Below are positions 15,893 to 17,578 of a DNA stretch of 64,000 bases, one piece after another (position 1 is the first letter of the stretch; every line of letters starts with the position of its first letter). A program made the translations under genes and the position numbers. Location: assembly GCA_964484135.1 (NCBI GenBank), contig CAZAEL010000002.1, forward strand, positions 4,700-68,699, in the 5' to 3' direction. The notes beneath the pieces were generated by a model that was not told the DNA's origin, did no database searches, and saw nothing but the letters and a program-made list of their open reading frames with translations. Source of the DNA: an uncultured Elusimicrobia bacterium. Lineage in GTDB: Bacteria > Elusimicrobiota > Elusimicrobia > FEN-1173.

Positions 15893-17578
15893 ATGTCCGG
15901 GGCCCTCTGGGGGCGTGAAAACGCCCAAGGGGGGAGGTTTGACGTACAAAAGGGAGGGTTGTTCGCCGTGACCGCCGAGACCAAAGCCGCCTCCATCCAG
16001 GAAGTCCCCTCCGGCGCGTCGGGCTTTTTTCCGGACCCTTCGGTCCGCCTCGTCAACGCCTTTTCCCAGCCCTTCAACAACGCGGTGGCCGCGGCCCGCA
16101 CCTGCTACTCCCCCAAGGTCGTCTATCCCGAAGACGTGGACCGCGATGAGAAGTCCCGGATCCAGCGGGACGCCATCGCGGCCAGCACGTACCAGGCCGG
16201 CCACCACACCACCATCCAGCACGCCACCTTCCAGTTTGTTTTGGAAAACGTGTCGCGCCAGTTCATCTGGTCCTTCCTCCACAGCCATCCTTTTTACAAC
16301 AGCGAGCAGGTCAGCCAGCGGTACGTGGCCGTGAAGCCCGAGAACGTGGCGGTCCCGCCCTTGGCGGGGAAGGCCCTGTCCCTGTACCGGGAGACCGTGG
16401 CCCTGCAGATGTCCGCGTACGGCCGTTTGATCGAACTCCTCGCCCCGGCGGTGGAGAAGGAATACAAGCGGATCTTCCCTTTGCGGGACCCGCGGGACAA
16501 AAAATGGGCCCGCTTCGTCCAGCGCAAGGCCCAGGAGGTGGCCCGGTACGTCCTGCCCGTGGCCACCCACGCCCATCTGTACCACACCGTCAGCGGCCTC
16601 ACCCTGCACCGGTACCACCGCCTCTGCCGAATTTTCGACGCGCCTCTGGAGCAGAAGACCGTGGTGGACAAGATGGTGGAGGAGGTCCGCAAGGCGGACC
16701 CGCTGTTCGCGGACAGCCTGGAAGACCCGCTGCGCCTGGAATCCACGCCCGAATATGAGCTCTTCGAAAAGTTCCATCGCAGGGCCGCCTCCCCGGCCCG
16801 GGAATTTTTGCGGGAGTTCGACGCCTCCCTGGAGGGAAAATCCTCCAAACTGGTGGATTACAAGGCCCGCGGCGAAGAGGTGTTGGCCCAGGCGGTGCGG
16901 ACCGTCATGGGCGTGCCCCGGGCGCGCCTTTCCGACGACGAGGCCATCGAGCGGGTCATGAGCCCGGCCCAAAACCCGTACTTCAGCGAGGCCCTCAACC
17001 TGACCACCCACGGCAAACTGACGCGGGCGATGGTGCACATGCACTTCACCTTCCGCAAGAAAATTTCCCACACGGCCGACAGCCAGGACCAGCGCCACCG
17101 CATGACGCCCGCGTCCCGGCCGGTGCTGTCCGGACACTTCGTGCCGGAGAAGCCGGACTACGTCGTGCCGGCCCTGGTCTGGGAAACGCCGGAGGCGTTG
17201 GAGTTCTATGAAGAGACCATGGAAACGGTTTGGAAAAACATCCGCGCCCTGCTGAACATGGGCGTTTCCCAGGAGTTCGCGCTCTATCTTTTGCCGAACG
17301 CGGTGAGCGTCCGGTTCGAGGAGTCCGGCGACCTCCTCAACTTCCACCACAAGTGGAGCAAGCGCCTCTGCTACACCGCCCAGGAAGAGATTTGGAAAAC
17401 CTCCCAGGAAGAACTCCTGCAGGTGGCCCAGGTGGCGCCCCGGGTGGCCCGACACATCGGCGCGCCCTGCTTTTTGCGGTCCGTGTCTCAGAGGCGACCC
17501 TTCTGTCCCGAGGGGGACCGGTTTTGCGGCGTCATCGTCTGGAAACTTCCCGTGGAAAACTACGAAAGGTTGATCTAA
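15893..17578 (+). CDS. thyX: FAD-dependent thymidylate synthase ThyX, tandem-duplicated (two ThyX domains in one 561-aa chain); alternative GTG start at 15968 with a better RBS (GGGAGGG)
   Basis: Domain 1 has SQRYV and AR-YVLP...RLCRI motifs. Domain 2 has [14 protein letters not shown] (RHR motif) and LP-NA...[10 protein letters not shown]. Confidence 0.75.

Follow-up and report, generated by a model that had tools for sequence, protein, structure and literature searches.

A fused double ThyX from an uncultured Elusimicrobia bacterium divides its active-site residues between two folds and is predicted to form two complete sites

Introduction

The flavin-dependent thymidylate synthase ThyX is of interest as a target of antibacterial drugs, and it is the textbook example of subunits sharing an active site. 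To our knowledge, every solved ThyX structure and nearly all mechanistic work concern the homotetrameric enzymes with a single fold per chain. Here we analyze a ThyX with two folds in one chain, encoded by an open reading frame (ORF) in a 64,000-nucleotide stretch of DNA (hereafter the window) from an uncultured Elusimicrobia bacterium (assembly GCA_964484135.1, contig CAZAEL010000002.1, positions 4,700 to 68,699, forward strand). Judging from the roles of its conserved residues, we consider it likely that a pair of the fused chains forms a pseudo-tetramer with two complete sites, not four, and that the protein serves as a housekeeping thymidylate synthase.

In the ThyX enzymes of Mycobacterium tuberculosis (Mtb) and Helicobacter pylori (Hp), each active site is built by three chains (PMC6514825), in line with the statement in the first-pass annotation of this locus that ThyX sites are formed from different chains. 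Chain A provides the RHR motif, which interacts with the phosphates and ribityl of flavin adenine dinucleotide (FAD) and with deoxyuridine monophosphate (dUMP), together with Mtb R199 (R174 in Thermotoga maritima, Tm). Chain C provides Mtb R87, S105, R107, and the lid residue Y108 (Tm S88, R90, and Y91 for the last three), and Mtb S71 and R190 of chain B (Tm T55 and R165) contact FAD (PMC6514825).

Classical ThyX, also named FDTS (TM0449, Rv2754c, and the H. pylori enzyme; PDB 1o26, 3gwc, and 3ah5), has one fold per chain, whereas the protein analyzed here has two. The classical enzyme is a homotetramer with four sites, and each of its folds carries the full RHR-x7-S-x-R signature; in contrast, the tandem protein is predicted to be a dimer with two sites, and its residues are partitioned by chain role. 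It also has an additional C-terminal tail bearing four Cys residues, and has lost the R165 equivalent in both halves.

By analogy, the closest conceptual precedent is the monomeric dUTPase of herpesviruses (e.g., BLLF3 of Epstein-Barr virus), in which a trimeric-type gene was duplicated and a single site is formed from motifs across both halves (PMC8961515). As is proposed for the tandem ThyX, duplication and fusion of an oligomeric ancestor gave a nucleotide-metabolism enzyme with a subunit of about twice the size and fewer sites than the ancestral oligomer (PMC8961515). However, the fold and the reaction are unrelated. The dUTPase works as a true monomer that has a single site, and for the tandem ThyX a need for dimerization is predicted; the former occurs in some herpesviruses only, and the latter across many bacterial and some archaeal phyla. 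The ThyX-like polyoxin UMP/dUMP C5-methylase PolB (PDB 4p5a) is a single-domain protein from a biosynthetic cluster, unlike the tandem protein with its housekeeping context. No description of a tandem, duplicated, or fused ThyX, or of such an asymmetry, was found in the literature searched, which was partial.

Two ThyX folds in a single polypeptide

The ORF that the first-pass annotation reported is real, and all the peptide strings quoted from it are present in its 561-residue product. It is organized as follows.

15893..17578, + strand: tandem flavin-dependent thymidylate synthase (ThyX) ORF, 561 aa, then a TAA stop
16046..16702, + strand: half 1 ThyX fold, aa 52-270; Pfam Thy1 E=3.2e-29, profile positions 1-190 of 191
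16703..16846, + strand: helical linker joining the folds, aa 271-318
16847..17440, + strand: half 2 ThyX fold, aa 319-516; Pfam Thy1 E=6.4e-27, profile positions 1-190 of 191
17441..17575, + strand: C-terminal tail beyond the Thy1 profile, aa 517-561, 45 residues

The E-values for Pfam Thy1 (PF02511) were obtained by scanning each half on its own, and both halves match the profile end to end. The whole protein passes TIGR02170, the NCBIfam thyX equivalog, with 106.5 bits against a cut-off of 87.9. Profile-profile alignment by hhalign against classical ThyX gave probabilities of 98.9% for half 1 and 90.5% for half 2, and half 1 and half 2 are homologous to each other (probability 95.5%, E=1.6e-8, in local mode with diverse profiles); global mode with close-homolog profiles left them unaligned (probability 0.1). 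The references were the enzymes of T. maritima (1kq4/1o26), M. tuberculosis (3gwc), H. pylori (3ah5), and Corynebacterium glutamicum (3ge9), the first three being exact sequence matches to their PDB entries. Profile-profile alignment was used instead of a comparison of the single T. maritima sequence with the hidden Markov model of each half, which gave weak and fragmentary matches.

A single-chain AlphaFold2 (AF2) model from 35 sequences of at least 60% identity had a predicted local distance difference test score (pLDDT) of 67.9, with active-site loops below 50. From 89 diverse sequences, the pLDDT rose to 95.7 with a predicted template modeling score (pTM) of 0.93. These results bear out the earlier claim of two ThyX folds and show that half 2, which might have been something else, is a ThyX fold. 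A sequence search found no tandem ThyX in the PDB, and the identity of the query to solved ThyX structures is only 15-22%.

Active-site residues are partitioned between the halves

Conservation was examined over 89 members with identity to the query down to 31%, and entropies are compared with a background median of 2.48 bits. Since local hhalign mis-registers the SQRY/QRHR region, the conserved S-R/S-H strand was taken as the anchor. The segments that carry the active-site equivalents are given below.

16199..16210, + strand: half 1 GHHT, aa 103-106; H104 = Tm H53 (89/89), T106 = Tm T55/Mtb S71 (87/89)
16250..16327, + strand: half 1 aa 120-145; R122 (Mtb R87), S141 (Tm S88), and R143 (Tm R90) invariant
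16535..16558, + strand: half 1 EVARYVLP, aa 215-222; R218 = Tm R147 equivalent (89/89)
16586..16627, + strand: half 1 aa 232-245; R174-equivalent column is C245, not conserved
17063..17122, + strand: half 2 aa 391-410; Q398 (Tm Q75), R401 (Tm R78), and R403 (Tm R80) invariant
17123..17140, + strand: half 2 putative vestigial substrate loop VLSGHF, aa 411-416; S88, R90, and Y91 equivalents, 3.2-3.8 bits
17273..17296, + strand: half 2 EFALYLLP, aa 461-468; R147 equivalent is L464, variable, 3.1 bits
17345..17395, + strand: half 2 aa 485-501; R491 = Tm R174 equivalent (89/89), C493 the first of four invariant Cys

The chain-C positions and R147 have entropies of 0 bits in half 1, apart from Y144 (Tm Y91; 90% conserved, 0.57 bits), versus 3.1-3.8 bits in half 2. 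The first-pass annotation was right that half 1 keeps SQRY. Half 2 shows the reverse pattern: the equivalents of Q75, R78, R80, and R174 are at 0 bits, and H402 (Tm H79) is 97% conserved. The R401-H402-R403 motif lies in exact register with the S-H/S-R anchor, and R491 has the spacing R-x4-A-Q-x-E-I, as in T. maritima. The earlier statement that half 2 keeps RHR and loses SQRY is thus correct, since its S88, R90, and Y91 equivalents vary freely. Half 2 also has H393 in place of Mtb R87 and is missing the GH-x-T motif. In half 1, the RHR position is occupied by L129/H130/S131/H132, without Arg, and the Q75, R78, R80, and R174 positions hold a variable residue, H130 (88/89), H132 (71/89), and another variable residue, respectively. 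R240, at the N169 position of half 1, is conserved in 87/89 members. The motif written as AR-YVLP...RLCRI, which half 1 was said to keep, is retained as far as R218 is concerned, but its RLC is not a retained R174 motif, since C245 occupies that column.

Half 2 therefore carries the chain-A set only, and half 1 carries the chain-C set, R147, and the His and Thr of chain B (H53/T55). The RHR-x7-S(-x-R) signature is incomplete within either half and becomes complete only when both are combined. R147 and H53 are present only in half 1 (R218 and H104) and R174 only in half 2 (R491), each once per polypeptide, so neither half has the R147, R174, and H53 that are required per subunit. The search for a complete catalytic set in both halves, which would have contradicted the first-pass annotation, found it in neither.

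Each half alone looks defective against the classical ThyX motif, which might be read as one half being an inactive scaffold, a pseudoenzyme domain, beside a self-sufficient ThyX. We find this scarcely credible: half 2 is without S88, R90, Y91, R147, and H53, half 1 is without R78, R80, and R174, and invariant catalytic residues are found in both halves.

Every residue listed as contacting dUMP in the Mtb and Hp enzymes is invariant in one half or the other. This argues against a related flavin-dependent methylase of nucleotides that uses a different substrate, of which the UMP/dUMP methylase PolB is an example, as do the passed NCBIfam thyX equivalog cut-off and the position of the gene among housekeeping nucleotide-synthesis genes, with no other thymidylate synthase seen in the window. 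In addition, the tandem class is a single housekeeping-type gene in hundreds of species, outside biosynthetic clusters. We regard a PolB-like function as very unlikely.

The partition is an ancient family trait

Twenty columns are invariant in the 89 members, and the query carries all of them. Nine lie in half 1 (C71, H104, H110, R122, S141, R143, E215, R218, and E253), seven are non-Cys columns of half 2, among them S392, Q398, R401, R403, P426, and R491, and four are Cys (C493, C526, C538, and C545). Given this conservation pattern, the split of residues is an ancient, fixed division of labor and a family trait, rather than decay or a peculiarity of one genome. The complementary loss of motifs that the first-pass annotation described holds as a partition of residues by chain role. 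However, "degeneration" is the wrong word for it, since the split is ancient and fixed and several of the substituted positions of half 1 are themselves conserved. From their entropies, the unused loop positions of half 2 are released from constraint, and the former RHR region of half 1 is plausibly conserved since it leads into the functional substrate loop of the same half.

The query matches at least 7,919 protein clusters defined at 90% identity. The best 120 of them are 439-561 aa long (all but one at least 507 aa), align over 91-100% of the query, and bear the name FAD-dependent thymidylate synthase in metagenome-assembled genomes (MAGs) of Omnitrophica, Elusimicrobia, and Chlamydiae. 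Among 50%-identity representatives, which were searched exhaustively, 340 matched at E<=1e-30, mostly full-length tandems and down to 33% identity, and most of the 150 representatives listed aligned in one end-to-end stretch. The signature peptides occur in at least 595 reference species of Elusimicrobiota, Omnitrophota, Planctomycetota, Myxococcota, Acidobacteriota, Chloroflexota, Kryptoniota, Gemmatimonadota, Nitrospirota, and other phyla. Members of the tandem class abound in uncultured phyla (Omnitrophota, Elusimicrobiota, Planctomycetota, Acidobacteriota, Myxococcota, Chlamydiae MAGs, and some archaea). The class crosses domains, since two tandem ThyX proteins of 40-41% identity to the query (P0160 and P0165) are named from archaeal MAGs. 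The archaeal NCBI names are Nanoarchaeota for MEK6835924.1 and Thaumarchaeota/Nitrososphaerota for MAH21880.1, which is annotated as a hypothetical protein.

Within a large and already annotated enzyme class, the query is an ordinary housekeeping representative; the predicted two-site architecture and the Cys4 site of this class appear under-described. The tandem class includes Chlamydiae-MAG proteins that are 62% identical to the query. A homolog search seeded with one of them reached no named Chlamydiaceae, and a cluster look-up of AT-rich representatives led to MAGs, some of them archaeal. The ThyX of Chlamydia trachomatis (CT632), at about 529 aa twice the classical length, may belong to the tandem class. 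The purified enzyme has measurable activity (PMC3498832), and chlamydial ThyX was omitted from early phylogenies for low identity (PMC6171736).

Some tandem relatives are longer by about 300 aa (P0330, 850 aa; P0140, 821 aa; P0145, 840 aa). P0330 has a match to Pfam PF14890 besides Thy1, and P0140 and P0145 match the query in two stretches; the additional segment could stem from an insertion, for example of an intein. One locus (L081, 2636-4185) has a half 1-like Thy1 gene of 299 aa, followed after 60 nt by a Thy1 gene of 196 aa. This pair looks like the product of assembly frameshifts rather than a true split ThyX, since the neighboring ferrochelatase is also split in two. Candidates for a heteromeric ThyX encoded by split genes were rejected: P0226 is encoded at the edge of a contig of 1.2 kb, and the contig of P0220 has a broken ferrochelatase, pointing to frameshift errors.

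Predicted assembly with two complete sites

A classical ThyX forms four sites from four identical chains, each site using three of them. In the scheme that we propose, these chain roles would be permanently divided in the tandem ThyX between the C-terminal and N-terminal folds. Half 2 would donate RHR, Q75, and R174, which hold FAD and dUMP (the chain-A role), and half 1 would donate the substrate loop (the chain-C role) and probably take the chain-B role as well, with H53/T55 beside the flavin. Two polypeptides would then contribute two copies of each half to a pseudo-D2 assembly, in which a complete site requires role A to be filled by half 2 and role C by half 1. By symmetry reasoning, exactly two of the four sites would qualify, whatever the wiring of the domains, which agrees with the earlier suggestion that the number of functional sites is halved. 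The assembly would bind one FAD per polypeptide, and the remaining two pseudo-sites would be vestigial.

Each complete site would combine half 2 of one chain with half 1 of both chains, so that a dimer is probably required. Since the surviving chain-B residues are found only in half 1, the enzyme would be an obligate dimer with complementation that is at least partly intermolecular. The proposal of obligate intramolecular complementation fits as to the complementary halves, but part of the complementation probably runs between molecules. We infer the dimeric assembly, site count, FAD stoichiometry, and activity from residue roles and gene context; the conserved residues and the housekeeping context point to FAD-dependent conversion of dUMP to deoxythymidine monophosphate (dTMP) with methylenetetrahydrofolate (CH2H4folate) and NADPH. 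The residue partition predicts one FAD per 536-aa chain (the probable product length, see below), a dimer, two sites, and trans-complementation between half-defective mutants. The tandem ThyX would be a clean natural case of duplication, fusion, and subfunctionalization of a shared active site.

Several points weigh against this architecture. The register of the RHR position in half 1 carries an uncertainty of about one residue, being S-H-P by phmmer, L-H-S by hhalign, and H-S-H with the anchor on the conserved S-R eight residues upstream. None of the three methods places an Arg there, so the earlier reading of a replaced RHR stands as to the missing Arg, but its exact HSH register comes from the anchored alignment. 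The equivalent of R165 (Mtb R190) is Leu in both halves, and FAD binding must therefore differ somewhat, in detail, from that of classical ThyX, as far as can be predicted from the alignment. PMC6514825, from which the chain assignments come, does not assign R147 to a chain. Lastly, the conserved H130, H132, and R240 of half 1 could mean that the "vestigial" sites keep some function.

The last point leads to two alternatives. All four pseudo-sites might be catalytic, with other residues as substitutes, such as H130 and H132 for the RHR arginines; the conservation of these two and of R240, in or next to the former RHR and N169 positions, would fit. However, this requires a dUMP-binding loop in half 2, where the equivalents of S88, R90, Y91, R147, and Mtb R87 have either been replaced or are hypervariable, and the conserved stretch of half 1 continues directly into the functional S141-x-R143 loop of that half, a sufficient reason for its conservation. 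We consider four active sites highly improbable. The vestigial pseudo-sites may instead have been repurposed, for example for binding a reductant (NADPH or another donor) or an allosteric ligand, in which case the fusion would have added a function besides halving the sites. The half 1 substitutions L/F129, H130, H132, and P133 are conserved and not drifting, and classical ThyX has no dedicated NADPH domain (PMC3498832). Nevertheless, no ligand-like motif was found, the half 2 positions expected to line that pocket are free to vary, and the adjoining functional loop can again explain the conservation, leaving only an outside chance for repurposing.

A C-terminal tail with four invariant cysteines

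The predicted two-site architecture is accompanied by a feature without a counterpart in classical ThyX, namely four Cys residues, three of them in the tail.

17369-17371, + strand: C493
17468-17470, + strand: C526
17504-17506, + strand: C538
17525-17527, + strand: C545

They form the signature RLC ... PC-x2-R ... P-x-CPEG-x-R-[FY]-CG, in which C493 lies two residues past R491. Of 105 representatives, 97 have the complete set, and the eight exceptions are truncated, frameshifted, or show a slip of one alignment column. The tail has a pLDDT of 95-98 in the second AF2 model, and it has no sequence relative in the PDB. No report of a metal site in ThyX was found in the literature searched.

The four Cys look like a candidate metal site. 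The conservative reading is structural zinc that staples the tail to the R491 helix, which is more likely than an iron-sulfur cluster. There is a slim chance that the residues bind a redox-active iron-sulfur cluster, through which ferredoxin-type donors could reduce FAD besides or instead of NADPH. If this were true, the tandem class would consist of iron-sulfur flavoenzymes and, taken together with the two-site pseudo-tetramer, would represent a branch of thymidylate synthesis with a mechanism of its own, spread over hundreds of lineages of bacteria and archaea.

Start codon and genomic neighborhood

The annotated ATG is likely wrong, and the ThyX product is probably 536 aa rather than 561 aa, a prediction from the following elements.

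15950..15958, + strand: Shine-Dalgarno-like AAGGGAGGG, 9 nt 5' of the GTG at 15968
15968..15970, + strand: probable true start GTG (codon 26), product 536 aa

The GTG at 15968 is preferred because of the Shine-Dalgarno-like sequence, because the alignment places the start column of the closest shorter homologs (P0002 and P0003) at this codon, and because residues 1-34 are disordered, with a pLDDT below 50, in the first AF2 model. The usual length in the family is 520-545 aa.

Downstream of thyX are genes of nucleotide synthesis.

17581..18870, + strand: purA (adenylosuccinate synthetase), beginning 2 nt past the thyX stop
18858-20018: carA, overlapping the 3' end of purA

thyX and purA are probably co-transcribed. 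carB lies downstream of carA without adjoining it. Between the two are an ORF of 341 aa without a Pfam match (20032-21057, +) and a von Willebrand factor A domain protein of 461 aa (21674-23059, +). tblastn with E. coli query sequences found no thyA, folA, or second thyX within the window, and thyX is an ordinary housekeeping enzyme gene here. The best genome match to the query ThyX is an Elusimicrobia MAG at 70% identity. Across 80 tandem ThyX loci, no operon partner is kept across phyla; the thyX-purA adjacency occurs in eight, all from Elusimicrobia (L002, L015, L016, L019, L020, L021, L024, and L038), with purA identity up to 82%. This adjacency and the best genome match point to Elusimicrobiota as the most likely origin of the window.

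Directly upstream of thyX is a giant ORF (49-15768, +) of 5,239 aa. Pfam is blank over its first 2,500 aa and gives only HEAT repeats, at about aa 4,460-4,570, and its translation contains several hydrophobic, membrane-like stretches. Elsewhere, the G+C content falls to 0.54 at 34001-36000, compared with about 0.63-0.70 in the rest of the window, a possible sign of foreign DNA or of RNA genes.
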